From NCBI GenBank assembly GCA_021786355.1, contig JAJYNK010000009.1:517-64516 (forward strand): a stretch of 64,000 bases of DNA, given 5' to 3'. The stretch's first letter is position 1; every line of letters starts with the position of its first letter. Source of the stretch: a bacterium (GTDB lineage Bacteria; Patescibacteriota; Minisyncoccia; UBA6257; UBA9933). The notes beneath the pieces were generated by a model, which saw only the letters and a list, made by a program, of their open reading frames with translations, did not search any database and was not told the origin of the DNA. Both the position numbers and the translations under genes were made by a program. Positions 14,240 to 55,015 of the stretch are shown here, piece by piece.

Positions 14240-14263
14240 CGTTGTATAGTATACTATACAACG
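14240..14263. repeat. Palindrome CGTTGTATAGTATACTATACAACG, one of five copies of the TATAGTATACTATA-core palindrome
   Basis: Other copies at 16889-16912, 32445-32466, 43175-43200 (inside a CDS) and 54896-54923. Confidence 0.85.
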
Positions 14264-14303
14264 CAAGAGGAAACGTACTTTAGTGATTAAATAAGTTTTT
14301 TGT

Positions 14304-14324
14304 TTTGTGTCCTCGGTGGGAGTC
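14304..14324. repeat. 21-bp direct repeat TTTGTGTCCTCGGTGGGAGTC duplicating the tRNA-Leu 3' end (att-like). Second copy at 14483-14503.
   Basis: Identical 21-mer at both positions. The second copy includes the last 17 nt of the tRNA. Confidence 0.8.
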
Positions 14325-14486
14325 CTCTTCCCCCGTAATTTTTCGTTCATAAATAAACATGAAAAATTACTCCTCCAGAGCCGGGGTTTTAAAAAAGCAA
14401 AGCAGTTTGCTTTTTTAAATACCCTTCTCCTCCCTTGTGATGTAAAAACTATAAATCCCTTTGAAATCAAAGGGATTTATAGTTTG

Positions 14487-14568
14487 TGTCCTCGGTGGGA
14501 GTCGAACCCACAACCCTTACGGGATAGCGTCCTAAGCGCTACGCGTATTCCATTTCCGCCACGAGGAC
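14487..14568 (-). tRNA. tRNA-Leu (anticodon UAG), long variable arm
   Basis: Reverse complement folds as acceptor GTCCTCG/CGAGGAC, anticodon stem TAGCG/CGCTA with loop CTTAGGA, variable arm TCCCGTAAGGGTT, T arm GTGGG-TTCGACT-CCCAC. Confidence 0.8.
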
Positions 14569-14629
14569 ATATTAAACAAATAAATTATACATTATTAAAG
14601 TGTGCTTTTTAATAAACCCCCTTATTTTA

Positions 14630-14708
14630 CCCCGTAGTGAATTTTGACTTTATTAATTTTATAAATTAATGTCGCCTTTGGCGACTACAGTCAAAATCTA
14701 CTATAGTG
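14630..14708. repeat. Hairpin repeat, family H copy 1 (CCCCGTAGTGAATTTTGACT ... AGTCAAAATCTACTATAGTG) with inner hairpin GTCGCC-TTT-GGCGAC
   Basis: Seen in the sequence. Belongs with copies at 14831, 40933, 43802 and 56613. Confidence 0.8.
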
Positions 14709-14830
14709 TTGACTTTTAAATAATTTTATTGTATTATATCTCAATATTTTGGATTAGACAATCCCACACATAAATACTGTGTATGGGACAAACTATCCCA
14801 AAATTTGCTCTTATAAATAGTTTACGTCAA

Positions 14831-14909
14831 CCCGGTAGTGAAGCTTCGGCCGAAATAAATTTTATCCTCCGACGTAACGTCGGAGGAAAGCCGAAGTTCT
14901 ACTACGGGG
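14831..14909. repeat. Hairpin repeat, family H copy 2 (CCCGGTAGTGAAGCTTCGGCC ... GCCGAAGTTCTACTACGGGG) with inner hairpin CCTCCGACG-TAA-CGTCGGAGG
   Basis: Seen in the sequence, immediately upstream of the higher-GC operon starting at 14953. Confidence 0.8.
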
Positions 14910-14952
14910 TCAATAATTCTGATATCTTAATCCTGAAAGGGGGACGACAACC

Positions 14953-15669
14953 ATGGCAGAAGAAAAGAAAGCTGATTTCAGCGCCGGAGAAGTTGGAAAA
15001 GAGCTCGGGATAACGGCAGGAGGTATTGCTGTTTTTGAACTCCTCAGAAAAGCCTGGGGGCTTATGAAGGTGGGGTCAAGAACCGCTGCCGCTGAAGTCA
15101 TTCGCGAAGTCGGGAGCAAGGCGGCCGCGGAAACGGCCAAAAAAGTGCAGGCGAAGATGAGCGATCATTACCGCGCCAAACTTCTTGTTTTTCTACAGAA
15201 GATGGAGTCTTCAACGGAACCGAGGCAGCAGAGCGCGGCAAAAACCATCAGAAAGAGGCAAGAGGACCGACAGTTTTGCCGGCCCCGGTCTTATTCTGAC
15301 GGCGGAAATTATCGACCCGGCGAAGAAAACCTTCTCGTGAATTGCCTCGGAAAAGTTCTAATACTCAAAGAACCTGAGAAAGAAGTAGCGGCAGAGGCGG
15401 CGGCGACAGAAAAAGAAACCATCAATTTCTTCGTCTGGCTCGGCGAACTCCCGCCTCAAGAATTCGACAGCGCGATTGAGTTTCTCAACCATGACATAGT
15501 TATGCAGTGGTTAAGAATGCTCGGCATTCGTTTCAACGAAATATTCGGTATCGTCGGTTCAGAACTACGTCCTTTCAACGATAAATGGGTTAAGTGGCTC
15601 AACAATCGCCGCACAGCACGCGGTCGGAGGACTGTAGAATATCAAAAGGAGGGCCCTCCTCATGCGTGA
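14953..15669 (+). CDS. Hypothetical protein (238 aa) in a higher-GC island
   Basis: GC visibly higher than the backbone. The stop overlaps the next start (ATGCGTGA), which suggests translational coupling. Confidence 0.5.
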   Translation: MAEEKKADFSAGEVGKELGITAGGIAVFELLRKAWGLMKVGSRTAAAEVIREVGSKAAAETAKKVQAKMSDHYRAKLLVFLQKMESSTEPRQQSAAKTIRKRQEDRQFCRPRSYSDGGNYRPGEENLLVNCLGKVLILKEPEKEVAAEAAATEKETINFFVWLGELPPQEFDSAIEFLNHDIVMQWLRMLGIRFNEIFGIVGSELRPFNDKWVKWLNNRRTARGRRTVEYQKEGPPHA

Positions 15670-16612
15670 AACTCTTAGTGAAATACTCCTAACGCTGCGG
15701 CTCATTCTCGACACAGTCATCACCGGCGCCGCGGACGCCGCCGAGGTCCTTGCCTTTGTCAGGGGCGAAAACAGAACCGATCTTGAAATATATCGGATCG
15801 GACTTTCACGGCTCGCGATTGCAGCGGCGCTTCTGCCTATACCAATCCTGCTTCTGGGAATTTTCGGATTCTCGATGTGGATTTCAATTGCGGGACTTAT
15901 TTGGGCGTTCTTCACGATCTTACTCTCTTTGCTGGCCGCGCCGATTGCGTTGATAATCGACGCGGTCTGGCACAGAACAACAGTAGGACTTGGAGAACGT
16001 TATGTTCGATTAACGCTACATGTTATTTTCGCCGAGTTATCGTTCGCAATAATGCTTATAGTCATTCCTATCGAGAAAAGACCTGAGTTGATCCCGTTGC
16101 TACTGCTCTTGGCCCTTATCATTTTTATTGGGACTCGTCTTTTTGGGGGCGCTTTCATCTTTAACGGAAGGGCAATAACGGTTGTTGCATCAATGATTTT
16201 CATCGCAATCGTCATTTCGTTGTTTCTCCCCCGCACAACGGCTCTCGCGAGAACCGCGGCGAGAGGAATCGATAATAATGTCGTTGCAGTATTTTCCTTA
16301 AATTCTCCTACGAAACCAACGGAAATAGGAACCAACCAGAAAATCCTCGTTGGGATGGAATTCCCGATCAAGCCAGGGGAGGATAATTATCTCTTCGCAA
16401 CTTCGGTCAAGGGAAAACGAACCGAGTACAAGTTGGAGGCCAACCAGCCCATCATCATTCGCTCAGCCCAACCCGACGGTTCTTTAAGGGATTTTCGACT
16501 GGGACCCGGAAGGTTTGGCTGGGAGGTTTTAAGAGATCAACAGGCTGGGCAGCTTCGGGTGCGAAGCGAACAGCCTGCGGTTCTCCGAATTATTGACGTG
16601 AACGAAAGTTGA
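15662..16612 (+). CDS. Polytopic membrane protein (about 6 TM helices) with a C-terminal soluble domain, in a higher-GC island
   Basis: Long hydrophobic stretches (LLLGIFGFSMWISIAGLIWAFFTILLSLLAAPIALII, LLLLLALIIFIGTRLFGGAFIF, VVASMIFIAIVISLF) followed by a 110-aa hydrophilic tail. Confidence 0.5.
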   Translation: MRETLSEILLTLRLILDTVITGAADAAEVLAFVRGENRTDLEIYRIGLSRLAIAAALLPIPILLLGIFGFSMWISIAGLIWAFFTILLSLLAAPIALIIDAVWHRTTVGLGERYVRLTLHVIFAELSFAIMLIVIPIEKRPELIPLLLLLALIIFIGTRLFGGAFIFNGRAITVVASMIFIAIVISLFLPRTTALARTAARGIDNNVVAVFSLNSPTKPTEIGTNQKILVGMEFPIKPGEDNYLFATSVKGKRTEYKLEANQPIIIRSAQPDGSLRDFRLGPGRFGWEVLRDQQAGQLRVRSEQPAVLRIIDVNES

Positions 16613-16618
16613 TCTTTG

Positions 16619-16738
16619 CCCCGTTAGAGAAAAGTCGCCGCGAGCGACTGAAGTCGTGCTCTTAGCACGGCGTTCTCTAATGGGGTTTGCCCCGTTAGAA
16701 GTAGGACGCGTACGATGCGTCCGCGACTTCTAACGGTG
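16619..16738. repeat. Two tandem hairpin repeats of family B: CCCCGTTAGAGA...TCTCTAATGGGG (16619-16685) and CCCCGTTAGAAGT...ACTTCTAACGGTG (16690-16738)
   Basis: Each arm pair is complementary apart from single G-T and C-T mismatches. The inner parts hold small hairpins. Confidence 0.75.
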
Positions 16739-16742
16739 TTTG

Positions 16743-16793
16743 CCCCACTTGTACTTCAGCGCAAGAGCGCTGAAGTACAAGTGGGATTTTTTT
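16743..16793 (+). terminator. Terminator in the same hairpin style: CCCCACTTGTACTTCAGCGC-AAGA-GCGCTGAAGTACAAGTGGG followed by T7
   Basis: A 19-20-bp perfect stem plus a T-run ending the island. Confidence 0.8.
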
Positions 16794-17029
16794 ATTTATT
16801 ACAGTTTCATACGAATTATAAATACACACGGATTGGTGCGTATAAAAAAATAAAATAGTTTGCAAAATTAATTCGGAAATAAATTTTTAGTGGTATAGTA
16901 TACTATACCACTTAACCGTTTTATATCGCATATAAAAATTATTTATTGTAAGAATATTGATTATAGGAAAAATAATAAAAAACACCCCAGTAAATCGGAG
17001 TGTTTTTTTAAATCACTAAATAAATAAAT

Positions 17030-17413
17030 TTATAAGTTTCCGGCAATTCCTCTTATTGCTGCGACTAGCCCTTTAGCAAGCAAGCCAACCGCGACAGATA
17101 CAAGAGCCCAGAGTATATGATTTCTTGCCGCTTTGGTTTTTGCTTCATCTCCGCCGGAAGTTAAAAACTGAAACGCTCCCCAAACAATAAAAACAACCGC
17201 CAAGGCAATTAATAATCCCAATAAATAATTAGCCACTGTATCTAGCGTATCGTACACATTAGAAAGGCCGGTTATGGGGATATTTCCGGGTTGTCCTTGG
17301 CCTGGCGGAGTAAATATCGCGGCAAACGAAAATACCGGCAACGCGAGCGATAAAATCGCTCCTGAATAAATAATACTTTGTAAAACTTTTTTCATTTTTT
17401 TGTATCGTATCAA
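17030..17413 (-). CDS. VirB2/TrbC-like pilin-family protein A (signal peptide, then two hydrophobic helices joined by TSGGD)
   Basis: YLLGLLIALAVVFIVWGAFQFLTSGGDEAKTKAARNHILWALVSVAVGLLAKGLV is the characteristic two-helix hairpin. Confidence 0.5.
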   Translation of the reverse strand: MIRYKKMKKVLQSIIYSGAILSLALPVFSFAAIFTPPGQGQPGNIPITGLSNVYDTLDTVANYLLGLLIALAVVFIVWGAFQFLTSGGDEAKTKAARNHILWALVSVAVGLLAKGLVAAIRGIAGNL

Positions 17414-17442
17414 TTCGACCTCGACCTTTTTCTTTATATTTA

Positions 17443-17853
17443 TTATAACGTTTGTATTATTCCGTACAACGCGCCGATGATTCCTCGCGCGAGTAAAATT
17501 ACTAATAATCCGATTGCGGCGTATAAAACTGTTTTTTGGCCTTCCTGGAATTTTTTAGGGTCGCCTGACGCGGTCATCATTTTCCAAGCGCCGTAGATAA
17601 CTATTATCACAGCCACAGAAACCGAAACGCCGATAAAATAATCGATTATTTTGGAAAGGACGCTATCAAGAGTCGAGCCGGATCCAAAATAATTAAAAAG
17701 CTGGCCGCTCCCGCCGCTAGCAGAAGGACTTGCTCCAGTTGGCTGACCGCCGCTTGTTGTCGGCTGACCTCCGCTTGTTTCGGCTAATTGATAAAAAGCA
17801 AACAAAGGCGCGACTTTAAGCCAATTCAAAATTTTTTTAATGTTTTTTCTCAT
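17443..17853 (-). CDS. VirB2/TrbC-like pilin-family protein B, with a low-complexity TSGGQPTTSGGQPT repeat
   Basis: DYFIGVSVSVAVIIVIYGAWKMMTASGDPKKFQEGQKTVLYAAIGLLVILLARGII has the same architecture as A and C. An imperfect 21-bp tandem repeat in the DNA encodes SGGQPT twice. Confidence 0.5.
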   Translation of the reverse strand: MRKNIKKILNWLKVAPLFAFYQLAETSGGQPTTSGGQPTGASPSASGGSGQLFNYFGSGSTLDSVLSKIIDYFIGVSVSVAVIIVIYGAWKMMTASGDPKKFQEGQKTVLYAAIGLLVILLARGIIGALYGIIQTL

Positions 17854-17994
17854 CCCAGTACTACAACTTCGATTATTTTTGTGTTAATTCTCGAGGTTGT
17901 GATTTATTGATTATTCTTATTTTTATTACCCAATATCAACTTAATTCAGGTTCTCAAAAATTTATAGAGAATGTATCGAAGTTGTAGTACTGGG
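17854..17994. repeat. 20-bp perfect inverted repeat CCCAGTACTACAACTTCGAT (17854-17873) / ATCGAAGTTGTAGTACTGGG (17975-17994) flanking a 101-bp AT-rich segment. The left arm abuts the ATG of pilin gene B.
   Basis: Arms verified base by base. The start codon of B (reverse complement of CAT 17851-17853) is immediately adjacent. Confidence 0.85.
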
Positions 17995-18026
17995 CATTTT
18001 TAAAATTATAAAAAATTTTTAACTGC

Positions 18027-18377
18027 TTAGCAAGGAAATTTATTCCATGGACCTAAACTGCCGCCGACAAGAACTTTCAAAACCAAATCAACTATGAACC
18101 CGGCTAAAAGAAGAATGGCTATGCCGATTAAGATAGTTCTTATTTTTCCAACCGCTTCTTTGTACTTTCCGGGATCTCCGGCAGAAGTCATTATTTTAAA
18201 CCCCGCCCAAACCAAAGCGCCGAGCGCCAAAACAAACGCGAAAACAATGACAAAATTATAAATATTTTGAGCTAACTGGAATAAATCGCAAATAGTACAT
18301 TCGAGCTTAGCCGTTCCCGGACCGCACTGAACTAAAGGGGTCAAAGCCGCATTGGCAATATTAACTAAATTAATCAT
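18027..18377 (-). CDS. VirB2/TrbC-like pilin-family protein C
   Basis: FVIVFAFVLALGALVWAGFKIMTSAGDPGKYKEAVGKIRTILIGIAILLLAGFIV. Confidence 0.5.
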   Translation of the reverse strand: MINLVNIANAALTPLVQCGPGTAKLECTICDLFQLAQNIYNFVIVFAFVLALGALVWAGFKIMTSAGDPGKYKEAVGKIRTILIGIAILLLAGFIVDLVLKVLVGGSLGPWNKFPC

Positions 18378-18388
18378 GGTTTTTCGTT

Positions 18389-18442
18389 GTCATCCCGAGC
18401 GTGGCGAGGGATCTCGAGATTCTTCGCTTCGCTCTGAATGAC
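18389..18442. repeat. Repeated 5'-UTR element D copy 1 (GTCATCCCGAG...AGGGATCTCGAGATTCTTCGCTTCGCTCTGAATGAC)
   Basis: A near-identical copy at 33201-33262 overlaps the holB start codon. Short terminal inverted ends GTCAT/ATGAC. Confidence 0.75.
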
Positions 18443-18476
18443 TCTTTGTTGTTGGTTGTAGGTTGTTAGTTATTGG

Positions 18477-19760
18477 TTATTTAAATAAATTATTTATCTG
18501 CGCGCCGGCTTGGTCAAGCGCTTGCTGGGAATTTGTTTTTCCGTTCAATACTGATTCGACCGCGTTTGAAAAAATCTGACTGGTTTGGTCGGGGTCCGGC
18601 TGATACCAGGAATCAGCAGAAAGTGCTTGGTTTGCGAAAACATTCAAATCCGGATCATTTTGATATTGCTTGATTAAAATTTTTAAAGCCGGCGGGCGTT
18701 TTGTCGCCTGAAGATATGTAAGAGAATTTTGCGGGTCGGTTGTCAGATATTTTATAAAATCCCAGGCAAGATCGGAGTTTAAACTTTTAGAAGAAACCGC
18801 CAGACCCCAATAAGCGGCGTAATTTTTAGGATTCGAAGAATCGACTTGCGGCATAGAAGCAACCGTAAAATTCAAAAGCGGATTTTTTTGTTTGAGATAC
18901 GAAATCTGATTAGCATAACCGAAAATCATCGCGGCCTGCCCCTGACTAAATAAATCAAATGAATTGCCCAGATTCTGATTCCAAACATAGTTACTGCTGG
19001 CTGGCTTGGCAAAACCTGTATAAAAATCAAATGCGTTAGTTGCTTTGCCACTAAAATCGGCTCGCATAAAGGATGGGTCGACCATCAAAGAACCGTATTG
19101 AATCATTAGCGTATTTAAAATATCGGTTCCGTTTACAATATTTTTATCAGAGCTGCCGATAGCGGCGCCTGCTTGAAAAATCTGGCCGTTGGCTTGTTTT
19201 TTTGTAAGCCGTGTCGCCAAATTCGTAAAATCACTCCAATTATCGGGCGGAAAAACAACGGCATTGGCATTAAAAATATCTTTGTTGTAAAAAAGAGCGA
19301 GCGAGTCGAGGTAAAGCGGCGAACCATAAACTCTGCCCTGATAAGTAAAATCTTTTTCAACAACCTGCGGAAAAAGTTGGCGAATATTTGCCAAAGAAAT
19401 TTGAGCGTCAGCGGCTGGCATTAGAAGATCGCCTTGCTTTAAAAGCCAGGAGTTATGGAACATCAAAATATCCGGACCCTGATTTTTCGCCATCGCTCGA
19501 ACAAATTCATTTTCAAAATCCGCTTCGGGAATTTGTTGGTATTGAATTTGAACTTTGCGGTCGTAAAGCTTGCTATAGTTGTCTATAGTGGCCTGAAAAG
19601 CGGAAACATTATCAACTCCCCAGAAAACCAGTTTTCCCGACACGGAAGTTTTGGAGCAATTTTTGGTTATAGGGATAACGCAAAAAATACTTAAGACAAC
19701 TAAAATAAGAACAATTATTCCGACCCCGAATAAAACTATTTTTGAGCGATTATTATACAC
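18477..19760 (-). CDS. Extracellular solute-binding protein (ABC-type family 1, sugar-binding-like) with an N-terminal membrane anchor; no adjacent permease or ATPase
   Basis: About 427 aa with an N-terminal TM segment and typical SBP length and composition (..WGVDNVSAFQATIDNYSKLY..). Confidence 0.65.
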   Translation of the reverse strand: MYNNRSKIVLFGVGIIVLILVVLSIFCVIPITKNCSKTSVSGKLVFWGVDNVSAFQATIDNYSKLYDRKVQIQYQQIPEADFENEFVRAMAKNQGPDILMFHNSWLLKQGDLLMPAADAQISLANIRQLFPQVVEKDFTYQGRVYGSPLYLDSLALFYNKDIFNANAVVFPPDNWSDFTNLATRLTKKQANGQIFQAGAAIGSSDKNIVNGTDILNTLMIQYGSLMVDPSFMRADFSGKATNAFDFYTGFAKPASSNYVWNQNLGNSFDLFSQGQAAMIFGYANQISYLKQKNPLLNFTVASMPQVDSSNPKNYAAYWGLAVSSKSLNSDLAWDFIKYLTTDPQNSLTYLQATKRPPALKILIKQYQNDPDLNVFANQALSADSWYQPDPDQTSQIFSNAVESVLNGKTNSQQALDQAGAQINNLFK

Positions 19761-19770
19761 GAGTTAATTT

Positions 19771-22257: not shown

Positions 22258-22267
22258 ACGCTTTGCT

Positions 22268-22576: not shown

Positions 22577-22585
22577 AAATCATTG

Positions 22586-24519: not shown

Positions 24520-24525
24520 ATAAAA

Positions 24526-32374: not shown

Positions 32375-32497
32375 TGGGTTATTTTAGCATTTAAGATCGG
32401 CGCGCGAAAGCACTATTTTATAATTAATCAAAATTCTGCGCCGCGCACTATAGTATACTATAGTGCCATCAGCTAATCCAGGGTTGTCTTCGCTTAA

Positions 32498-33689: not shown

Positions 33690-33690
33690 T

Positions 33691-33718
33691 GGTTAATTAG
33701 TTAATTGGTTGATTAGTT
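33691..33718. repeat. Octamer-repeat motif M (GGTTAATTAGTTAATTGGTTGATTAGTT) immediately upstream of the start codon of the 33689 gene
   Basis: Related copies at 13234-13257, 54811-54840 and 62110-62146. Confidence 0.75.
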
Positions 33719-33815
33719 CAATAATACAGAAGTAGGTCACGGATGGCAATTTTACTTTACAAAAAAACTATATCTGCTACTTTTAAGACAGCACAAATCC
33801 AGCGAGGAGGCGATT

Positions 33816-38132: not shown

Positions 38133-38160
38133 AAATATTCTTATAGCTAAAGACGTTTGA

Positions 38161-38208
38161 CCCCGTTAGAAGTCGCGAACGCATCACGCGCGTCCTATTT
38201 CTAACAGG
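38161..38208. repeat. Hairpin repeat, family B copy (CCCCGTTAGAAG ... TTTCTAACAGGG), flanked by GTTTGAC on both sides
   Basis: Shares CCCCGTTAGAAGT with the 16690 copy. Confidence 0.75.
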
Positions 38209-38283
38209 GTTTGACTTGGGTTTATTTTTTGTGGTAAAGATTTATTAGTAAATACAAAAAATCAAACGAAGGAGGGCGCCGCG

Positions 38284-40932: not shown

Positions 40933-41009
40933 GCCCTGTAGTGAATTTTGGCTTGATAAAATCTGATTTTATTCGCTTTTGGCGAAGACAGCCAAAATCT
41001 ACTACTGGG
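40933..41009. repeat. Hairpin repeat, family H copy 3 (CCCTGTAGTGAATTTTGGCT ... GCCAAAATCTACTACTGGG)
   Basis: Seen in the sequence. A half-copy (ATATGCCCGGTTAGTGAAAAAACGATTGATT) follows at 41024-41059. Confidence 0.8.
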
Positions 41010-41023
41010 TTGAAAAATCAAAA

Positions 41024-41059
41024 ATATGCCCGGTTAGTGAAAAAACGATTGATTTCTAC
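41024..41059. repeat. Left member of a 36-bp inverted-repeat pair (AAAATATGCCCGGTTAGTGAAA[A/C]AACGAT[T/C]GATT). The partner lies at 43690-43725 in reverse orientation.
   Basis: About 33 of 36 bases identical after reverse-complementing. The pair flanks a 2.7-kb segment. Confidence 0.7.
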
Positions 41060-41773: not shown

Positions 41774-41967
41774 ACGCGGGCGACCATGATTTTCACTACT
41801 CGCGCGCGCCTCGCTAAGCTCGGCACGGCTGCGTTCTAAAACCCTGCGGTTTTAGTATTTCCGCAACGGGAAAACGAGTTTTCCCGACCCCTTTCTTGGC
41901 GGTTCAAATCCGCGATTCACATCAGAAAAATAAAACAACAGTTTCGACTGTTGTTTTATTTTTCTTG

Positions 41968-42041
41968 CGCGGGCGACCGGATTTGAACCGGCGACCTCTG
42001 CCGTGACAGGGCAGCGCTCTACCAGACTAAGCTACGCCCGC
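41968..42041 (-). tRNA. tRNA-Asp (anticodon GUC)
   Basis: Reverse complement folds as acceptor GCGGGCG/CGCCCGC, anticodon stem CTGCC/GGCAG with loop CTGTCAC, T arm GCCGG-TTCAAAT-CCGGT. The 5' end overlaps the last 15 nt of the LAGLIDADG ORF. Confidence 0.8.
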
Positions 42042-42695
42042 TTGCCGGTATATATTATATTTTCTCCTTAAATAAATCAACTTTTCTGGATTACGCTCGT
42101 ACATGAACATAAATAATTTTCCTGAGTCCCTAATAGAATAATTTAGATACCAAGAATTATCGCTTTTTTTAAAAAGTGATCCTGTAAGATTTATCGAATC
42201 CGATAAGGCCTTTTTTAACTCCTTGATAAAAACTTCGCTTCCTGAAGTAAACCGGCTAAGAAGTACTCGCGATTTGTTTTTTCGATCCGCTTTTTTAAAA
42301 AACCCGAATGAAACATTTCCGCCTCCATCAAAATAACCTCGCACAAAGTGGCAAAAATATTTACTTGGGACGCGTGGTAATTTTATTGTTTTGCTTTTTG
42401 CCGGAGTAAGACCTAATTTTATTAAGTCACAAAACATGGCCTTACTCCCTATTTGCAATCTATAAACGGTCTTGTGCTTTTTATCTCTTTGAATAATCGA
42501 AATTTTATGGTTTGATTCAAGAGTTTTTTGAATTTCTCTTAATAAATCCGCGTCTGTAATTTGAAACTCTATAAAATGCGCGCCTCTTTTGTTTTTAAGC
42601 ATATTCCCATCCGCCGTGAAAAACCCCAAAATATACGCCATTTCCGGAGTCCATTTTTTGAAAAAATTTTCGTTTTTTGTTTTATAAATCGGCAT
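42027..42695 (-). CDS. LAGLIDADG homing endonuclease (two-motif, monomeric type)
   Basis: Motifs AYILGFFTADGN and HFVRGYFDGGGNVSF. Confidence 0.8.
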   Translation of the reverse strand: MPIYKTKNENFFKKWTPEMAYILGFFTADGNMLKNKRGAHFIEFQITDADLLREIQKTLESNHKISIIQRDKKHKTVYRLQIGSKAMFCDLIKLGLTPAKSKTIKLPRVPSKYFCHFVRGYFDGGGNVSFGFFKKADRKNKSRVLLSRFTSGSEVFIKELKKALSDSINLTGSLFKKSDNSWYLNYSIRDSGKLFMFMYERNPEKLIYLRRKYNIYRQAGVA

Positions 42696-42729: not shown

Positions 42730-43563
42730 TTACTTCGGTTTTATAACTATAAATCTTTTCTTCCACCCTTTTTTAAATTCCTCTGTTGTGGCTTTTCTCT
42801 CAATAAGATTTGGATTGTTTATGTCGGGATCGGCGAATAAAACAATGTCGCCGTCTATCCCAAAAATAACCACCAAATGTCCGCCGTTTTGCGGATTTAG
42901 ATTCTTATATATGGAAGCTATGACCGGCCCGTTTTTTAACTCTTCAATCATTCGTTCAAAAGCGGTTTCCGTTTCTTCTTTCGCGAAATCAAATCTATTG
43001 CCCCTTAAACCAAAGTGTTTTACTGCGGCGTCTATTAATCCTTGATGCAGCCACCCTATGTTTTCTACATAAGCTTTGTTTTTGACCCCGTCGGAAATTA
43101 TAAAGTCAACTAAAAATTCGGAAAGTTTTTTCATCTTATCTTCGTCTACGTTTTTTGTCGGCCAAGCTCTTTCCAAGTGGTATAGTATACTATACCACTT
43201 GACTGAGTCGTGTTCGTCTAATAATTCGTTGAGTTTGTTTGTTTCGTTGCTTATCCAGTTTGCGTCATTTACGCTAGAAATAATCTTTGAATCTTTTAAA
43301 AGTTTTTTAATCGCTTTAACTACGTTTGGATCTTTTTTTGAAACACAATAAATCACAATCATCGCCAAAGAAGCGGGACCGCAGACTCTTTTTGCCCAAA
43401 ATTCGTTGCAGCCGTCGCCTTCGCAAAGCCCCTGTCCGTCCGGCAGGCGGGCATACCCGCTTTTGCCGATATCCAAATGCTGAGAAATGTTAACCGGAAG
43501 ATGGTGGCGAATTAAGAATTTTTTTTCCCGTCTTTTGTCCTGTTTTTTATTTATCGTATTCAT
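42730..43563 (-). CDS. Papain-like cysteine peptidase, C39-like family (Peptidase_C39_2-like)
   Basis: Cys box RVCGPASLAMIVIY and a C-terminal GGHLVVIFGIDGDIVLFADPD His/Asp region. The CDS contains a 26-bp perfect palindrome encoding KWYSILYHL. Confidence 0.5.
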   Translation of the reverse strand: MNTINKKQDKRREKKFLIRHHLPVNISQHLDIGKSGYARLPDGQGLCEGDGCNEFWAKRVCGPASLAMIVIYCVSKKDPNVVKAIKKLLKDSKIISSVNDANWISNETNKLNELLDEHDSVKWYSILYHLERAWPTKNVDEDKMKKLSEFLVDFIISDGVKNKAYVENIGWLHQGLIDAAVKHFGLRGNRFDFAKEETETAFERMIEELKNGPVIASIYKNLNPQNGGHLVVIFGIDGDIVLFADPDINNPNLIERKATTEEFKKGWKKRFIVIKPK

Positions 43564-43771: not shown

Positions 43772-45971
<2,200 letters not shown>

Positions 45972-48170: not shown

Positions 48171-48185
48171 TGGTTTTTGAAAAAA

Positions 48186-48497: not shown

Positions 48498-49856
48498 ATG
48501 GATCACGAACAAGTTTGGAAACAGGTTTTAGCAGAGGTTGAAATTCAATTATCCAAGCCCAATTTTGTTACGTGGTTTAAAAACAGCCGCTTAATTGAAA
48601 AAAACGACGACGGTCGAGTCATTGTCGGGCTCGGAAATAATTTCGCCAAGGAATGGGTTGAGAATAAATACCATAAATTGCTTAGCGACATTTTTTATTC
48701 ACTTGATTCGTCGGTAAAAAAGGTGGAATACGCTGTTTTGACATTGCCTGCCGAACAAAGACCGCAACCTTATAGCCGAGCGCCCGCGGTTTCAAGCCAA
48801 CCGGCGCTTATAGAGGTAAGAATCGATCCGGAAACGAATCTTCATCCTCGTTATAATTTTAAATCTTTTATTGTTGGGTCTTCAAATGAACTTGCTTACG
48901 CCGCTGCGATGGGGGTTGTTAAAGAGGTTGGATCAAAATATAATCCTCTTTTTATTTACGGGGGCACGGGACTTGGTAAGACCCATCTTCTTCAAGCGAT
49001 CGGCAATGAAATTAAATTTAATTACAAAGAGCGGCTTAAAACAAAATATGTTCCTTCGGAAAAATTCGTAAACGATATTATTTCGGGAATTCGTAATAAA
49101 AGGATGGAGGATATAAAAGACAAATATCGAAGCGTCGACGTTTTAATTATTGACGACATCCAATTTATCGCCGGCAAAGAAAGAAGTGAGGAAGAATTTT
49201 TCCACACTTTTAATGTTTTATACGATAGCGGCAAACAAATAATAATCTCGTCAGATAGACCGCCAGCGGCAACACCAATTTTAGAAGAGCGCCTAAGATC
49301 TCGTTTTAGCGGGGGAATGATCGCGGATATTGGTTTTCCGGATTATGAAATGAGGGTGGCCATAATAAAATCCAAAATTCGAGAAAAAGGAATGGGCCTG
49401 GAAGATGCTTTATGCTCCTTAATAGCCTCTAAAATACAAAGAAATATAAGGGAATTGGAAGGGGTTTTGAATAAGATCGTTTTTTACCAAGAAGCTAAAA
49501 ATATAGAGCCGAGCCATGAATTAATTAATGAAATAATAGAAAAAAACATCAAACAAACATTTAAAAACGTTTCTCCGACTCAAATAATAAAAGCGGTTTC
49601 CGGTTTTTTTGAAATTACTGAAAAAGAAATTTCCGACCACTCGCGCCGAAAAGAATTAGTGGAGCCAAGACAGATTGCGATGTATTTATTGAAAGATATT
49701 TTGGGGATGTCCTATTCTGATATTGGGAATAAGTTGGGGAAAAGAGACCACTCAACGGTTATTCACGCGTGCGAAAAGGTCTCAAAAAAGATTAATAATG
49801 ACCAGAAATTAAACCAAAAAATTATTTTAGTTAGAGAAATCATCGAGAAGAATTAA
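48498..49856 (+). CDS. dnaA: Chromosomal replication initiator protein DnaA
   Basis: AAA+ Walker A GGTGLGKTHLLQAIGNE, DnaA signature and a C-terminal HTH (..IAMYLLKDILGMSYSDIGNKLGKRDHSTVIHA). Confidence 0.95.
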   Translation: MDHEQVWKQVLAEVEIQLSKPNFVTWFKNSRLIEKNDDGRVIVGLGNNFAKEWVENKYHKLLSDIFYSLDSSVKKVEYAVLTLPAEQRPQPYSRAPAVSSQPALIEVRIDPETNLHPRYNFKSFIVGSSNELAYAAAMGVVKEVGSKYNPLFIYGGTGLGKTHLLQAIGNEIKFNYKERLKTKYVPSEKFVNDIISGIRNKRMEDIKDKYRSVDVLIIDDIQFIAGKERSEEEFFHTFNVLYDSGKQIIISSDRPPAATPILEERLRSRFSGGMIADIGFPDYEMRVAIIKSKIREKGMGLEDALCSLIASKIQRNIRELEGVLNKIVFYQEAKNIEPSHELINEIIEKNIKQTFKNVSPTQIIKAVSGFFEITEKEISDHSRRKELVEPRQIAMYLLKDILGMSYSDIGNKLGKRDHSTVIHACEKVSKKINNDQKLNQKIILVREIIEKN

Positions 49857-49973
49857 TTTATCAACAGAATTTAAACATTATTTTTTTTGATTTTTTTATT
49901 TAATTAAATGAATTTTTGCGCTTATCCACAAAATTTCATTCCTCTACTATAACTACAATTTATATTTATTATT
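49857..49973. other. dnaA-dnaN intergenic region with a perfect DnaA box TTATCCACA (49922-49930); candidate oriC part 2
   Basis: Consensus 9-mer seen directly, embedded in very AT-rich DNA. Confidence 0.6.
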
Positions 49974-51089
49974 ATGAAATTAATAGTATTGAAAACTAAT
50001 TTAAGAGATGGGTTGGGTATTGTTGGAAAAATAAATTCAGAAACGCCATCACTCCCAATCTTAAAAAATTTTTTATTGGAAACAGTTGATAATCAAATTA
50101 AAATTTCCACAACTAATTTAGAACTGGCGATTACCGGGTATGTTTCCGGAAAAATAATTGAAAACGGAGGATTAACTATTCCGTTGAATATTTTTTCGGC
50201 TATTATTAACAATCTTCAAAGCGAAAGAATTGAGTTAGAAACCGAAAAAGATAATTTAATAATTAAAACGGAAAATTACGAAGCTAAACTTCAAGGAATA
50301 AAAAAAGAAGACTTTCCGCTTTTGCCAAAAGTGGAAAACAGTGAAAATTATATTGAGATTCAAAACTCTATTCTTAAAAAAACTCTAGCGTTGGTTATGA
50401 GCGCCGCCCAAGCTTCCAACGCGAGACCGGTTTTGAATAGTATTTTATTAGATTTCCAAACAAGTTTCATAAAGTTAGCCGCCACCGACGGTTTTAGATT
50501 GGCGGAGCAAACAATAAGCGAGAGTTATTATAAAACAAATCTTGAAAAAAACATAAAAATGGTTATCCCTCTAAAAACAATCCAAGAATTAATAAGAATT
50601 ATTCAAGACGAAGAAAACGGCAATATTAGGGTTTATTTCGATAATAATTTAATAATTTTTAAAAACAACAAATATGAGGTTATTTCAAGATTAATAAACG
50701 AAGAATTTCCAAATTACGACCCAATCATACCGAAGGTTATAAACACTGAAATAATAGTAAATAAAAACCAACTAATAAGCGCGCTGAAGTTAACTGGGGT
50801 TTTTAGCGACAGATTAAACGAAATAAAAATAAACATCCCAAAAGAGAGGAAGAATATCGAAATTTATTCATCCAACTCGTTTGTGGGAGAAAATAAATAT
50901 TTAATTCCGGCGAAAATAAAAGGAGAGCCGCTGGAAATAGTTTTTAATTGGCGGTTTATAACCGATGGAATAAAAAATTTAGAAACCGAAAATGTGTTTG
51001 TGGGGTTAACAAGCGATAAAAGCCCTGCGCTTGTAAAACCAGCAAGCGACTCCAATTATTTTTATATCGTTATGCCGATTAAGGCGTAA
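49974..51089 (+). CDS. dnaN: DNA polymerase III beta sliding clamp
   Basis: 371 aa. Position after dnaA plus a three-domain clamp-like pattern. Confidence 0.85.
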   Translation: MKLIVLKTNLRDGLGIVGKINSETPSLPILKNFLLETVDNQIKISTTNLELAITGYVSGKIIENGGLTIPLNIFSAIINNLQSERIELETEKDNLIIKTENYEAKLQGIKKEDFPLLPKVENSENYIEIQNSILKKTLALVMSAAQASNARPVLNSILLDFQTSFIKLAATDGFRLAEQTISESYYKTNLEKNIKMVIPLKTIQELIRIIQDEENGNIRVYFDNNLIIFKNNKYEVISRLINEEFPNYDPIIPKVINTEIIVNKNQLISALKLTGVFSDRLNEIKINIPKERKNIEIYSSNSFVGENKYLIPAKIKGEPLEIVFNWRFITDGIKNLETENVFVGLTSDKSPALVKPASDSNYFYIVMPIKA

Positions 51090-51095
51090 GAAAAT

Positions 51096-53198
51096 CTATT
51101 GTGTCCAAGAGCGAACTGGCGTTTCCCAATTTAGAAACTGAGGATCGTCATTTGGATTAGTGGGGGGTGGGCCAAGTGGGTCGTTTCTGTTTACGTAAAA
51201 AAGAATATTGTGGAATTGAGAATTGATATTGTACTGACCGTTCAGTATTGGTTTGGATTGGATTATAGGGTCGGGATTGTTAAATGGTTCATTAGGAAAT
51301 TTACTTATAACTTGTTTCATAAACGAACTCCAAATTGGGAGAGCCGCTAGTATGCTTCCAGCGCTTTTTTGCATTGGTTCTCTGTGGTTGTTTCCGGCCC
51401 AAACGCCAACAGCTAAAGAAGGCGTGTATCCAAAAGTCCAGGCGTCAACGTAGTCGTTGGTGGTTCCGGTTTTGAGCGCGACTTCTCTGTCGTCGAAAGT
51501 TGTCAGGTTGTAGCTGCTCTGATAAAGAGGTCGGCGGGCTTCGTTATCCGAAAGCACATCGTTTATAAGTCGAGCGTATTGAGAGTCTATGGCTTGGATT
51601 GGCTTATCAACAAAACTTTCCATGATCCTTCCTTTGGAATCTTTGATGTTTAAAATTATCGTTTGTTGATGTCGCGTTCCTTCTTGGGCAAAAACTGAAT
51701 AAGCGCCAACAAGTTCGGTAAGTTTTATTTCTCCGCCGCCGAGCACAAGCGAGAGTCCGATTCTATCGGCGTCGTTTAGAGTCGTGATGCCGAAATCTTC
51801 CGCTGTTTTTATGACATTGTTCAATCCGGCTAAGTATAAAACTTTTACCGCCGGCACGTTTATTGATTGGGCAAGGGCATTTCTTAAATTAACCGGCCCG
51901 CGGAAAATATGGTCGTAATTTTGGGGGTGATAACAAGGCGGGTTGCTTATTTGATAATTTATATTCGATAACGGGCACGACGGGTTGTTGGACGCGAATT
52001 CGGTTGGCAAATCAAAAACAACAGTGTCCGGAGAGTAACCTTCTTTAAATGCCGTTGCATAAACTAATGGTTTTATCGAAGAGCCTGGTTGGCGGACGCC
52101 TTGGCTTGCAACATTAAAATTGCCGTCTATAGATTTATCGAAATAATTTGCCGAGCCTACTAAGGCCAGAATTTGACCAGTTTTCGGGTCTTCGGCAACT
52201 AAAGCGGCATTTTTCCCTTTGTAGAGTTCAGCGTTTCGGCTGGCTCCTTCTCTTACGACCTTGTCTGCTGTCTGTTGTAGATCCCAATCAAGGGTTGTGA
52301 TAACTTCGAAACCGTTGGTATTTAAAGCTTCTTCCCCGTACTTATCTATTAAATAATCCCTAACCATCATTACGAAGTGGGGGGCTTTTATGCTGCCGAG
52401 GTTTTGTTGAGTAAATTTAGGCGTTGTTTTTTGAGCTAATTCTTTTTCTTTTTCGGAAATAAACCCCATTTTTTGCATTTGATCGAGAATATGATTTTTT
52501 CTCGCTAAAAGATCGTCACTGTGGTTGCCCCAAGGAGAATAATAAGGGGGTGATTTTGGCAGAACCGCCATTGTGGCGGCCTCGGCGAGAGTCAAATCTT
52601 TGGCTGATTTAGCCAAATAAAGCTGCGATGCGGATTCTATGCCGTAGGTATTCGATCCGTAGGAAATCTGGTTTAAATATAAATTCAAAATAGCATCTTT
52701 CGAATAATATTTTTCTATCCAGTAAGTTAAAATAAGCTCTTTGATTTTTCTCTGCAAAGTTTTTTCGTTTGTCAGAAAAGCATTTTTCGCCAATTGCTGG
52801 GTTATGGTCGAGCCTCCTTGGACAAATTTTCCGCTAAGGATATTTGCGAAAACCGCACGGGCGATTCCTTTCCAATCAAGGCCGGCGTGCTTGTAAAAAT
52901 TTTGATCCTCCGCGGCTATGGTCGCATTTCTCATGTTGTCGGGGATTTCGGTCGATGAAAGGATTGTGCGTCTGCCTTGGCCGCTTATTTCGTAAAGCAA
53001 AATTTTTCCGGTGCGGTCATAAATTTTTGTGGACTGGGCCACTTGCCACGCAACGGCTTTTTCGGGGTTGGGCAAGCTTTTGGCAATTTTTGCCGTTTCA
53101 AATAAGCCCCAAACCGCAATGGCCAAGAAAATAATAAAAAGAACTCCAGAAATTTTTAAAACTTGGTAAAGTTTTTTATTTTTTACCGGAAGAGACAT
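51096..53198 (-). CDS. Class A penicillin-binding protein (PBP1A-type transglycosylase/transpeptidase)
   Basis: N-terminal TM segment, glycosyltransferase motifs (EDQNFYKHAGLD, GGSTITQQLAKN) and a transpeptidase SxxK region. Confidence 0.85.
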   Translation of the reverse strand: MSLPVKNKKLYQVLKISGVLFIIFLAIAVWGLFETAKIAKSLPNPEKAVAWQVAQSTKIYDRTGKILLYEISGQGRRTILSSTEIPDNMRNATIAAEDQNFYKHAGLDWKGIARAVFANILSGKFVQGGSTITQQLAKNAFLTNEKTLQRKIKELILTYWIEKYYSKDAILNLYLNQISYGSNTYGIESASQLYLAKSAKDLTLAEAATMAVLPKSPPYYSPWGNHSDDLLARKNHILDQMQKMGFISEKEKELAQKTTPKFTQQNLGSIKAPHFVMMVRDYLIDKYGEEALNTNGFEVITTLDWDLQQTADKVVREGASRNAELYKGKNAALVAEDPKTGQILALVGSANYFDKSIDGNFNVASQGVRQPGSSIKPLVYATAFKEGYSPDTVVFDLPTEFASNNPSCPLSNINYQISNPPCYHPQNYDHIFRGPVNLRNALAQSINVPAVKVLYLAGLNNVIKTAEDFGITTLNDADRIGLSLVLGGGEIKLTELVGAYSVFAQEGTRHQQTIILNIKDSKGRIMESFVDKPIQAIDSQYARLINDVLSDNEARRPLYQSSYNLTTFDDREVALKTGTTNDYVDAWTFGYTPSLAVGVWAGNNHREPMQKSAGSILAALPIWSSFMKQVISKFPNEPFNNPDPIIQSKPILNGQYNINSQFHNILFYVNRNDPLGPPPTNPNDDPQFLNWETPVRSWTQ

Positions 53199-53231
53199 AA
53201 TTTTGTTAAATTATAACATTTTAAATAAATC

Positions 53232-53258
53232 CCGCCCCAACCTAAGTCGGGGCGGGTG
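53232..53258 (-). terminator. Terminator hairpin CCCGCCCCGACTTAGGTTGGGGCGGG followed by a T-rich run on the minus strand
   Basis: Downstream (minus sense) of the 53269 ORF. Confidence 0.6.
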
Positions 53259-53268
53259 ATTAAATTTA

Positions 53269-53538
53269 TTATTCTAAATTGCCGTCGCTGTATTCTTTTA
53301 AATAAGAATCGTCGACCGGAGGTTGGTAATTATCTTCAGAATCGCCTAAAAGATCATCATCGGTTTTCCGGGGCGACTTTTTAGCTTTTTCCGGGTCATG
53401 TTCTTCTTCTCCGGCGGAATCAAGAACGTCATCTTCTTTGCCTTGCGGTTCTATATCCGCTTCTAGTTCGTCGATTGAAAATGAAGACATTGTAAATTTT
53501 ACAAAAAACGACCTTTCTTTGCGCCGAATAAATATCAA
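53269..53538 (-). CDS. Small highly acidic hypothetical protein (possibly starting at MSSFSIDEL, 53490)
   Basis: ORF with a strongly Asp/Glu-rich composition. Confidence 0.35.
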   Translation of the reverse strand: MIFIRRKERSFFVKFTMSSFSIDELEADIEPQGKEDDVLDSAGEEEHDPEKAKKSPRKTDDDLLGDSEDNYQPPVDDSYLKEYSDGNLE

Positions 53539-53592
53539 ATTATGGCGCGGTTTGCTTAATTAGCAAAAGAATAAGTTATATATTTTTTTTGT

Positions 53593-53743
53593 CAATCCCG
53601 CACCTTTCGCGGATTGCGAAGCTATAAAATTCCAGAAACTAAAAAGATAAAAAGTCACCCACCTTTCTTAAAGAAAAACGGTTTGGATTTAGTTCGGCGG
53701 CTTCGAAAAGAATTTATATCCGCGAAAGGTGCGGGATCAATCG
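53593..53743. repeat. 19-bp perfect inverted repeat TCCCGCACCTTTCGCGGAT / ATCCGCGAAAGGTGCGGGA about 100 nt apart, spanning the ruvC 3' end
   Basis: The right arm encodes IDPAPFAD in the RuvC C-terminal tail. It shares the CCCGCACCTTT core with the GIY-YIG-flanking repeat. Confidence 0.75.
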
Positions 53744-54218
53744 TGGATAACCAACGTATTTGATTAGAGGCAACAATGGCAATCGCAATTGCATCCGAGA
53801 CATCGTCCAAAATATTTATTTTTTTTATTTTTAATATTTTAAAAATCATATCCGCCACCAATTTTTTATTGGCGTTGCCCAGGCCAGTAATATTTAATTT
53901 AACTTCCGACGGGGCCAGTTCGATAATCGGTATTTTTTGAGCCGTAGCCGTTAATATTAAAACTCCTCGCGATTGGGCGACCTCCAGGGCGGTTTTAAGA
54001 TTTTTCATAAAGAAAAGTTTTTCTATAGCAACAAAAGCAGGCCTCTGTTTTTTTAGAAGAGAGGCGAACGATTTTGAAAGTTCCAAGAGTCGAACATTTT
54101 TGTCTTGAGATGATATTTTTAACAAGCCGCTTTTTATAAGCTTTAAATCGCGGCCTTGTTTTTCTATTAATCCGTAACCGGCGCGAGTGCTGCCCGGATC
54201 GACACCTAAAATAAGCAT
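53655..54218 (-). CDS. ruvC: Crossover junction endodeoxyribonuclease RuvC
   Basis: MLILGVDPGSTRAGYGLIE catalytic N-terminus and the DAIAIAIVASN helix. The 30-aa basic C-terminal tail runs through the inverted repeat. Confidence 0.85.
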   Translation of the reverse strand: MLILGVDPGSTRAGYGLIEKQGRDLKLIKSGLLKISSQDKNVRLLELSKSFASLLKKQRPAFVAIEKLFFMKNLKTALEVAQSRGVLILTATAQKIPIIELAPSEVKLNITGLGNANKKLVADMIFKILKIKKINILDDVSDAIAIAIVASNQIRWLSTIDPAPFADINSFRSRRTKSKPFFFKKGG

Positions 54219-54276
54219 ATAATTTTCAATTTTTAATTTAAAATTTTCATTGAATTTTTAATGACTCAATTTAAAA

Positions 54277-54810
54277 TTATTTTAAGTCCGTGTTCGTTAC
54301 TATATTTTGTACATCATCGTGATTTTCTAGCGCTTCGATTAAAAAGTTTAATTTTTCTTTTCCGGCAGAAGTTGTTTCGTTTTTGAATTTCGCTGAATAG
54401 CCTTCGGCGGTTTTTTTAAAAGCCCATACAACGCTTCCCGGATCGGCCCACTTGGCTTCGTGGTCGGATAAAATTTTTTTAGTTTCCGCAACGGTCCGGT
54501 TTTTGCTGTCGGTGATGGCTTCTATTAAAATCGCGACGCCCTCCGGTCCGTAGGCCTCCATAATCAATTCTTCTAAATTGTCGGATTTTTCCGAAGCGCG
54601 TTTAATGGCTTTTTCAATATTGTCTTGCGGAACGTTGTTTTGTTTTGCTTTGTCGATCGCAGAACGAAGTGTCGGGTTGAATTGAGGATTGGGTTCTTTT
54701 TTGGCGGTAATAGTAACAACGTTTAAAAGTTTGGAAAACAAGGCGCCGCGTTTTTTATCGGTTGTTTCTTTTTTACGTTTTATTCCCGACCAGTGGGAGT
54801 GACCAGACAT
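54277..54810 (-). CDS. yebC: YebC/PmpR family transcriptional regulator (start at MSGHSHW; the ORF track extension to 54891 is rejected)
   Basis: MSGHSHWSGIKRKKETTDKKRGALFSKL matches the YebC N-terminus. Classic yebC-ruvC linkage. Confidence 0.8.
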   Translation of the reverse strand: MSGHSHWSGIKRKKETTDKKRGALFSKLLNVVTITAKKEPNPQFNPTLRSAIDKAKQNNVPQDNIEKAIKRASEKSDNLEELIMEAYGPEGVAILIEAITDSKNRTVAETKKILSDHEAKWADPGSVVWAFKKTAEGYSAKFKNETTSAGKEKLNFLIEALENHDDVQNIVTNTDLK

Positions 54811-55015
54811 GGTTGGTTGATTAGTTAATTGGTTAGCTGGCAAGAAGAGACAAGATAATAATAGAATAGAAACTAAGGAGATAAAAGTCAAAACCTAAGT
54901 TGTATAGTATACTATACAACTTAAACTTTCTTTTTTAGAGAATAATTTGTGTGTAAAAAACAGCCCGTTGGCGAAACGCCGCGGGGCTGGTGCAAAGAGC
55001 GAGAAAATCAGATGT

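Follow-up and report, generated by a model that had tools for sequence, protein, structure and literature searches.

Perfect palindromes with an invariant 14-bp core in a Patescibacteria lineage, predicted operators of a TrpR-like protein family

Locus and palindrome family

Contig JAJYNK010000009.1 of the Patescibacteriota assembly GCA_021786355.1 (GTDB lineage Minisyncoccia; UBA6257; UBA9933) contains, within a stretch of 64,000 nucleotides (positions 517 to 64,516 of the forward strand; hereafter the window), five copies of a perfect palindrome that share the 14-base core TATAGTATACTATA and differ in their outer arms. Here, we describe this family and a gene for a small TrpR-like protein that lies between two of its copies, and we propose, at about even odds, that the palindromes are operators of that protein.

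The window carries dnaA, dnaN, rnpA, ligA, recO, glyS, frr, ruvC, dnaE, and thrS; since it holds dnaA and dnaN and the cumulative GC skew has its minimum near 44 kb, it is the oriC region. Its closest named relatives are Candidatus Wolfebacteria/Patescibacteria, and its gene order is kept in relatives at 84 to 87% nucleotide identity. Alignment matched it to parts of several NCBI, ENA, and Logan assemblies at 99.2 to 99.9%, and two regions (L254 and L272) of contig 1 of GCA_027423115.1, hereafter the population genome, align to it at 99.4% and 99.3%. The G+C content is ~40%, so that the window, whose genome was called AT-rich in an earlier sequence-only reading of the same DNA, is just moderately so. 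Rfam returned five tRNAs from the window and nothing else; one of them is a tRNA-Ile with anticodon UAU, which is unusual in bacteria.

The sequence-only reading had reported five exact copies with an invariant core and differing, always pairing arms, and outward extension of each copy bore this out. The core has five exact matches in the window (mean, 0.00, and maximum, 0, in 100 dinucleotide-preserving shuffles of the window), as the earlier claim of a nonchance occurrence had it. No further copy with up to two mismatches was present in the window; the family is therefore all-or-none. Every window copy is the center of a perfect palindrome of 22 to 28 bp, and 28 consecutive flank pairs are complementary when summed over the five. 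As a control, 122 chance matches to the 14-mer were taken from viral contigs; 78 had zero complementary flank bases, and a handful had four or more flank pairs, with AT-rich arms except in two whole-contig palindromes. Chance and composition were rejected as sources on these two grounds. Two IMG/VR contigs, 3300037189_006406 (L019; 5.9 kb) and 3300032287_001987 (L039; 9.9 kb), each form one perfect palindrome from end to end, centered on ATTATAGTATACTATAAT; they are probably foldback assembly artifacts, the alternative being the junction of a hairpin-ended replicon.

When the 134-nt flanks of the five copies were aligned pairwise, their similarity was no higher than that of random pairs from the window; the copies are therefore not fragments or duplicates of a longer repeat unit, which disposes of the recent duplication that the sequence-only reading had named as a possible refutation. 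An assembly artifact was likewise excluded for the window, as copy 4 is present in all eight of the listed assemblies that carry the surrounding C39-like peptidase gene, and copies 3 and 5 were found again in the independent assemblies examined. A literature search with the exact sequence TATAGTATACTATA gave no relevant report, and searches on Patescibacteria with palindromic repeats or Patescibacteria LexA gave nothing applicable.

Outside the window, GTDB species representatives (scanned with one arm specified) yielded one true member, a Wolfebacteria metagenome-assembled genome (MAG; locus L133) with two copies 405 bp apart. Metagenomes were scanned with the pattern KG-core-CM, and the metagenome counts that follow are among the matches listed. 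Arms extended over 4 (14 matches), 5 (6), 6 (4), 7 (4), 8 (8), 9 (3), 11 (2), 12 (5), and 15 or more (3) pairs; chance would leave about one quarter as many at each further step, and the observed tail is long. Together with the Wolfebacteria MAG, at least 41 distinct complementary arms surround the core. They stop abruptly, with no wobble pairs and no mismatch followed by renewed pairing, and the 41 arms show at most a weak base preference at positions -3 to -8 (-4 is mostly G or T). An invariant center with arbitrary, perfectly complementary arms is thus a general property of the family. Crude gene calls placed 7 metagenome copies in convergent, 8 in tandem, and 2 in divergent gaps, and the 52 genes beside 35 copies belonged to diverse Pfam families with no recurrent partner enzyme. 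In the population loci examined, about 112 kb, there were 9 exact cores and one center variant.

In another metagenome, two contigs (Ga0123357; L161 and L162) carry a 76-bp tandem repeat (3.6 units, 95% identical) with a 16-bp palindrome, GTATAGTATACTATAC, in each unit. A CRISPR- or TIGR-like array was considered for these contigs and rejected, because the flanks are constant and there are no variable spacers.

A TrpR-like partner gene

At L133, the two copies bracket a 130-amino-acid gene; the upstream copy stops 3 nt short of the ATG, and the downstream copy shares bases with the stop codon. A homolog with 54% identity, on an unrelated metagenome contig (L195), has the junction TATAGTATACTATA-CAG-ATG and is followed by two copies of the center variant TATAGTCAACTATA. 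The population genome encodes two paralogs outside the window (loci L274 and L278). P0141, on contig 4 (DAICAC010000004.1) between comM and uvrD, has a copy at core-CAG-ATG and a 46-bp perfect palindrome ~100 nt past the stop; P0138, on contig 5 between dinB and a gene for a PD-(D/E)XK/Cas4-like nuclease, has a copy at core-CCA-ATG and another that overlaps the stop. The gene is bracketed by two palindromes in all four cases. Among all metagenome loci fetched, a profile search located it only in L133, L235, and L195.

The spacing between core and start codon (core-N3-ATG, equivalent to TATACT-N6-ATG) is identical at the four genes, and it therefore sets the TATACT half at the -10 distance for a leaderless mRNA. 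A leaderless-type pattern, TGnTAnAAT-N6/8-ATG, precedes six ATG start codons of window genes, and one further gene has it at N11; by analogy with these genes, the upstream palindrome probably has a promoter role.

The encoded proteins fall in the Pfam family Trp_repressor (PF01371): the ortholog at the L133 locus, P0137, scores 39.2 bits against a cutoff of 27, and PF01371 is on record for P0141 and P0138. A profile search of the PDB recovered the TrpR-like structures 3g1c, 3frw, and 3kor (E values, 2e-6 to 1e-5), and the top 26 Foldseek matches of an AlphaFold2 model (pLDDT, 64) were all TrpR or TrpR-like chains (TM-scores, 0.45 to 0.68). These ~130-amino-acid proteins represent a separate, Patescibacteria-specific branch of the Trp-repressor family. 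Their C-terminal tail is basic and conserved and contains the motif RKYRF. We are aware of no earlier account of the clade or its sites.

The base pair beside the core follows the paralog type. All four sites that flank genes of the P0138/P0137 type read GG-core-CC, and all sites that flank genes of the P0141/L195 type read TG-core-CA, the center variant TATAGTCAACTATA included. At the locus of a further homolog (L281; 44% identical), the core is missing and another inverted repeat, CATCGGTATAC..GTATACCGATG, is present. A phage origin was considered and rejected, as viral contigs lacked TrpR-like homologs and the core-ATG junction and PHROG matches were insignificant.

Operators or dispersed elements

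TrpR acts as an obligate dimer on dyad operators. Because two palindromes bracket each of the TrpR-like genes, the palindromes are most likely binding sites of the TrpR-like protein, and we put at roughly 0.5 the probability that they are operators of dimeric, Patescibacteria-specific TrpR-like proteins whose arms are either a hairpin-templated by-product or selected for hairpin formation. By binding the upstream copy, a dimer would repress the gene that encodes it. The recognized unit would be the invariant 14 bp with the next one or two pairs, TG..CA sites serving one paralog type and GG..CC sites the other; the covariation of site and paralog and the different repeat at L281 fit such a scheme. 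The outer arms would not be read by the protein, since one promoter site has just two arm pairs; with arms of 2, 4, 4, and 8 pairs at the four TrpR-like promoter sites, they are not needed at presumed functional promoters. The five window copies may be further sites of the same proteins, copy 5 (before yebC-ruvC) and copy 3 (before frr) being promoter-proximal and copies 1, 2, and 4 not. Of the three ideas in the sequence-only reading, an operator for a dimeric regulator is the only one to gain support (from the bracketed gene and the fixed start-codon spacing), although a plain operator does not explain outer arms that always pair.

Escherichia coli TrpR and its operators (trpEDCBA, aroH, and trpR) are the nearest comparison. 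The partner is in the same Pfam family with the same predicted fold, the site is a dyad, and it lies over the regulator's own predicted promoter, implying autoregulation. The E. coli trp operator, ACTAGT-TA-ACTAGT, contains CTAG-N4-CTAG, and the core, ATAG-TATA-CTAT, has TAG-N4-CTA at the same spacing; we treat this as a lead only. The Patescibacteria proteins differ from TrpR in their basic RKYRF tail and in falling below the NCBIfam cutoffs for TrpR and YerC/YecD. Unlike the E. coli operators, the palindromes are exact rather than degenerate, far more frequent per kilobase, and often off promoters; their outer arms vary yet are perfectly complementary, and the TrpR-like gene always has a second site at its 3' end. 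A second inverted-repeat operator, CIRCE of the HrcA regulator, is also nearly invariant across distant genomes, and CIRCE can act as an RNA hairpin as well. Its layout is the opposite, conserved arms around a nonconserved 9-nt spacer, and it is restricted to heat-shock promoters in few copies per genome.

Several findings weigh against the operator proposal. Of the 10 sites in the population genome, about 6 are near promoters, convergent or 3' gaps contain three, and a coding sequence contains one; in the window itself, three of five are off operator positions (two convergent 3' gaps and one coding sequence). The population loci hold exact cores and one recurrent center variant with no degenerate sites within two mismatches; regulons are rarely all-or-none in this way, copied or homogenized elements more often. 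Operators would be expected mostly at promoters and in a graded series of strong to weak matches, and the palindrome family does not show this pattern. Copy positions are not conserved among relatives at 84 to 87% nucleotide identity. Every TrpR-like gene has its second copy at the 3' end, where it is as much like a cassette end as like a second operator, and the gene's neighborhoods vary (comM..uvrD, dinB..nuclease, or next to rplS). The proteins score 26 to 29 bits on TIGR02531 (cutoff, 42.2) and 24 to 28 bits on TIGR01321 (cutoff, 67.25). A template-switch origin of the arms, for its part, is only suggested by the sequences compared, among which no ancestral and derived pair was caught.

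Many of these points would suit the main rival of the operator proposal, a selfish or domesticated element like the repetitive extragenic palindromes (REPs), spread or kept at the DNA level and landing wherever tolerated, with the TrpR-like gene as a dedicated partner comparable to the REP-associated tyrosine transposase (RAYT). We consider this unlikely, though less so than the other rivals. All copies have the exact core but unrelated arms, their positions shift between relatives, and those of the window occupy 3' or convergent gaps or, in one case, a coding sequence. The mixed convergent, tandem, and divergent contexts of the listed metagenome copies, the diverse genes beside 35 of them, and a partner gene bracketed in four of four cases amid differing neighbors fit such an element as well. 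Like REPs, the palindromes are short (22 to 46 bp), dispersed, hairpin-capable, and mostly extragenic (4 of 5 window copies), and they are enriched at gene 3' ends with a dedicated gene flanked by two copies. The partner, however, is a small helix-turn-helix protein of the Trp_repressor family with no recognizable catalytic domain, not an HUH/Y1 transposase (PF01797), and no Y1/HUH transposase was found among the called genes of about 110 kb of the population genome, short of a whole-genome search. The hallmark GTAG (GT[AG]G) head of REPs is absent, none of the 41 arms ending in GTAG. The REPs of one genome share their whole sequence and are imperfect palindromes, whereas here only the center is shared and the unrelated arms are perfectly paired. 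At copies 3 and 4, comparison with the relative at 87% identity revealed no clean insertion boundary or target-site duplication, and the order dinB-TrpR-like gene-nuclease is stable between genomes with 82%-identical proteins.

A bolder form of the REP-like explanation can be drawn, one that we regard as speculative and a little less probable still: a new genome-wide hairpin element of candidate phyla radiation (CPR) bacteria in which a TrpR-fold partner would replace the HUH transposase. Nothing but the 14-bp apex would be specified, and hairpin-templated DNA synthesis would write the stems from local sequence ("inverted target copy"). The protein would recognize or nucleate cruciforms or hairpins instead of working as a classical repressor, and reduced genomes of this kind would in general tend, by mutation, to grow perfect palindromes.

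Whether regulator and operator or a REP-like family, the architecture is unusual, with its invariant center, free complementary arms, and bracketed partner gene. To our knowledge, gene regulation in CPR bacteria is almost unexplored, because they are uncultivated and have few recognizable regulators. The operator proposal offers a directly testable protein-site pair, an 18- to 22-bp duplex and two small TrpR-like paralogs that apparently differ in specificity at one base pair, with yebC-ruvC, frr, and the Cas4-like nuclease as candidate targets and dinB, uvrD, and comM as neighbor genes. Under the REP-like explanation, if true, the dispersed palindromes would have a partner other than a transposase; we know of no other system of that kind.

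Origin of the complementary arms

Since a plain operator leaves the pairing of the arms unexplained, they call for a separate explanation. At L195 and at one L133 site (L133a), the coding-side arm is fixed by the protein sequence, and the noncoding arm matches it. The arms stand in a wider setting of perfect hairpins. Among perfect stems of 8 bp or more in the window and at L262, L267, L268, L270, L271, L274, and L278, loop-less palindromes are far above chance: 13, 14, and 14 hairpins have central spacers of 0, 2, and 4 nt, against expected shares of 6%, 19%, and 75%. Stem changes between orthologous terminators are fully compensated, as in L262:649 compared with L267:629.

Because the hairpins of the clade are so often loop-less and the terminator stems fully compensated, hairpin-templated extension is the most likely source of the arms as far as these comparisons indicate. 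Template-switch mutation that extends the identity between inverted-repeat arms is an established mechanism (PMC7202029, PMC3820800). Such quasipalindrome copying, templated on a hairpin, would extend an existing palindrome outward; it perfects and lengthens inverted-repeat arms and would give contiguous, sharply ending, Watson-Crick-only arms of arbitrary sequence. It differs from the present case in being known from rare mutations in E. coli and yeast reporters, not as a genome-wide shaper of a site family (PMC7202029, PMC3820800). Selection for hairpin or cruciform formation, for example, for terminator function at 3' ends, is a possible alternative source. Hairpins that are so often perfect with compensated stems suggest either strong DNA-level selection in this clade or frequent template-switch "perfecting," and the latter, if true, would amount to a mutational bias that shapes genomes.

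A second family of perfect palindromes (36 to 42 bp) has the center TGACGATCGTCA and common ATCGTA..TACGAT outer parts. A relative (L270) has one copy within its holB-like gene and another in its holB-frr spacer, and a third follows tgt in the population genome; the window has only two 1-mismatch centers.

The five window copies

The gene contexts given by the sequence-only reading stand, with four copies intergenic and the fifth in the C39-like peptidase coding sequence. Four of its coordinate pairs stand too (Table 1), and copy 4 proved one pair longer per side than the 43175-43200 reported there.

A tyrosine recombinase gene ends 53 nt before copy 1, and on the other side a tRNA-Leu gene has its 3' end toward the copy. 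The tRNA 3' end (TTTGTGTCCTCGGTGGGAGTC) is duplicated ~170 bp off, between the recombinase gene and the tRNA, an att-like direct repeat that suggests the remnant of an integration event. The neighboring recombinase bears on an explanation by recombination or nuclease targets, namely, a Xer/dif-like site family or the sites of homodimeric LAGLIDADG endonucleases, both put forward in the sequence-only reading. The 28-bp copies do parse as 11-6-11, like dif, and the window has two LAGLIDADG genes, one of them adjoining the gene that holds copy 4. In that parse, however, the outer 4 to 7 bp of the recombinase-binding arms are the variable part, the wrong way round for such a site, and the central GTATAC is symmetric and gives no directionality. 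At least nine copies occur in about 112 kb; those of the window surround oriC, not the terminus, and four more are on two other contigs. A recombinase gene stands beside only 1 of the 10 population sites, phage-integrase-family genes were 2 of the 52 neighbors of the listed metagenome copies, and neither a recombinase nor a LAGLIDADG gene was among the called or examined genes of copy-bearing loci in other contigs and organisms. Homing sites, moreover, are unique and destroyed by insertion, and the window's LAGLIDADG genes do not adjoin copies as at a homing site. Neither proposal is supported, and we rate this explanation the least probable of all.

Copy 2 occupies the gap between two convergent transcription units and is itself set between two canonical T-tract terminators, one on each strand, which already end both units. 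Three tandem type IV secretion system pilin-like (TrbC/VirB2) genes adjoin it. Its position bears on an explanation at the RNA level, in which the palindromes would be bidirectional terminators or 3'-end stabilizers and the conserved apex perhaps a handle for an RNA-binding protein. Predicted free energies of -13 to -21 kcal/mol (z-scores, -2.8 to -6), A/T tracts beside the arms of several metagenome copies, a terminator-like call on both strands for copy 5, and enrichment at 3' ends and in convergent gaps are all in its favor, and a hairpin used on both strands would need pairs of the Watson-Crick type only, as these arms have. Yet copy 2 would be redundant between its terminators, and most copies (1 to 4 in the window) have no T tract. 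Copies that overlap promoters would not be transcribed whole if the mRNA is leaderless, the weak AU-only 5-bp apex is the opposite of terminator selection, and invariance of 14 nt across organisms is left unaccounted for. We consider the RNA-level explanation improbable.

Copy 3 lies in the 123-nt spacer between a holB-like (DNA_pol3_delta2) gene and frr, ~55 nt upstream of frr's own leaderless-type promoter, TGCTAAAAT-N6-ATG. In three relatives, this spacer is 34 to 45 nt and lacks the copy 3 palindrome; a fourth relative has a different perfect palindrome, of 42 bp, exactly there. A plain promoter role for the palindromes was considered and rejected, as copies 1, 2, and 4 drive no gene and frr has a promoter of its own beyond copy 3.

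Copy 4 lies in frame within the C39-like peptidase gene and encodes KWYSILYHL. It belongs to 47 extra codons, specific to the lineage, at a position that is hypervariable among the nine homologs compared. The sequence-only reading had advised checking whether relatives lack the segment, and they do, along with the rest of the 47 codons. At the same hot spot, L268 carries an unrelated 27-codon (81-nt) insert that is hairpin-rich and Arg-rich (PRRLRKSGL...), and other relatives have no insert. Rickettsia palindromic elements likewise lie in frame in protein genes, with unrelated insertions in homologs here, but they are 100 to 150 bp long and conserved throughout, whereas copy 4 contributes a 14-bp repeat to an otherwise unique 141-nt insert. 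The closest relative available (87% identity) lacks copies 3 and 4 together with the 85 to 141 nt of unique DNA around them. A free-standing double-motif LAGLIDADG gene lies directly downstream of the peptidase gene; a tRNA-Asp overlaps the 3' end of its open reading frame, and relatives have no LAGLIDADG gene there.

Copy 5 follows, on the minus strand, an upstream gene of 109 amino acids and precedes the real yebC start codon (yebC-ruvC) by 85 nt. It ends 4 nt ahead of a promoter-like pair, TTGACT-N17-TATTCT.

The five copies span -34 kb to +6.5 kb of dnaA, and the window holds dnaN and the GC-skew minimum as well. These facts would agree with chromosome-organizing sites clustered at the origin, either a noncanonical parS or the site of a nucleoid protein, the more so as no canonical parS occurs in the window within three mismatches. 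Similar copy density on two other contigs of the population genome, a linked protein that is TrpR-like rather than ParB, and the lack of copies near the origin (syntenic 20 kb) in three relatives, one of which, JANLIR01, has the family elsewhere, make such a role very doubtful. Canonical parS (consensus TGTTNCACGTGNAACA) was rejected outright; the palindrome sequence is unrelated to it, and copies also occur on other contigs.

Table 1. Positions of the palindrome copies and of associated features (window coordinates unless a locus is named; core, TATAGTATACTATA)
Feature	Position	Strand	Start of core	Sequence or remark
Copy 1	14240-14263		14245	CGTTG-TATAGTATACTATA-CAACG, 24-bp perfect palindrome, TG..CA subtype
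Copy 2	16889-16912		16894	AGTGG-core-CCACT, 24 bp, GG..CC subtype
Copy 3	32445-32466		32449	GCAC-core-GTGC, 22 bp
Copy 4	43174-43201		43181	CAAGTGG-core-CCACTTG, 28 bp, GG..CC subtype
Copy 5	54896-54923		54903	TAAGTTG-core-CAACTTA, 28 bp, TG..CA subtype
Tyrosine recombinase gene	13224-14186
tRNA-Leu gene	14486-14568	minus
Direct repeat of tRNA-Leu 3' end	14295-14318, 14484-14506
T-tract terminator	16744-16785	plus
T-tract terminator	17008-16977	minus
TrbC/VirB2 pilin-like genes	17030-18377
holB-like gene, stop	32498
frr, ATG	32374
C39-like peptidase gene	42730-43563	minus
Insertion hot spot in peptidase gene	43134-43300
Peptidase locus with unrelated insert	L268 6604-7338
LAGLIDADG gene	5031-5534
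LAGLIDADG gene, double motif	42027-42695
tRNA-Asp gene	41967-42041
tRNA-Ile gene	3193-3265			Anticodon UAU
dnaA	48498-49856
Second palindrome family	L270 18081-18118, 18345-18386; L278 13744-13779			Center TGACGATCGTCA
A/C-rich stretch	13230-13258	plus		AACCAATTAACTAATCAACC
A/C-rich stretch	33691-33726, 54811-54842, 62126-62145	minus		AACCAATTAACTAATCAACC
Second repeat family	14831-14910, 40973-41057, 43799-43872, 56615-56758			CCCGGTAGTGAAGCTTCGGCC ... AAAGCCGAAGTTCTACTACGGGGT
Inverted 50-nt sequence	16690-16739, 38160-38209

Other repeats in the window

An A/C-rich stretch with 8-nt periodicity, AACCAATTAACTAATCAACC, occurs four times in the window. Three occurrences stand directly upstream of the start codons of the recombinase gene, PGM_PMM, and yebC, and the fourth has no gene after it; the stretch resembles a 5' leader, or an element for translation initiation, common to these genes. 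Another repeat family, CCCGGTAGTGAAGCTTCGGCC ... AAAGCCGAAGTTCTACTACGGGGT, consists of hairpin-forming pairs just upstream of the open reading frames at 14953 and 41181 and of ligA and dnaE. A 50-nt hairpin-forming sequence is present twice, 21 kb apart, in inverted orientation and 86% complementary.

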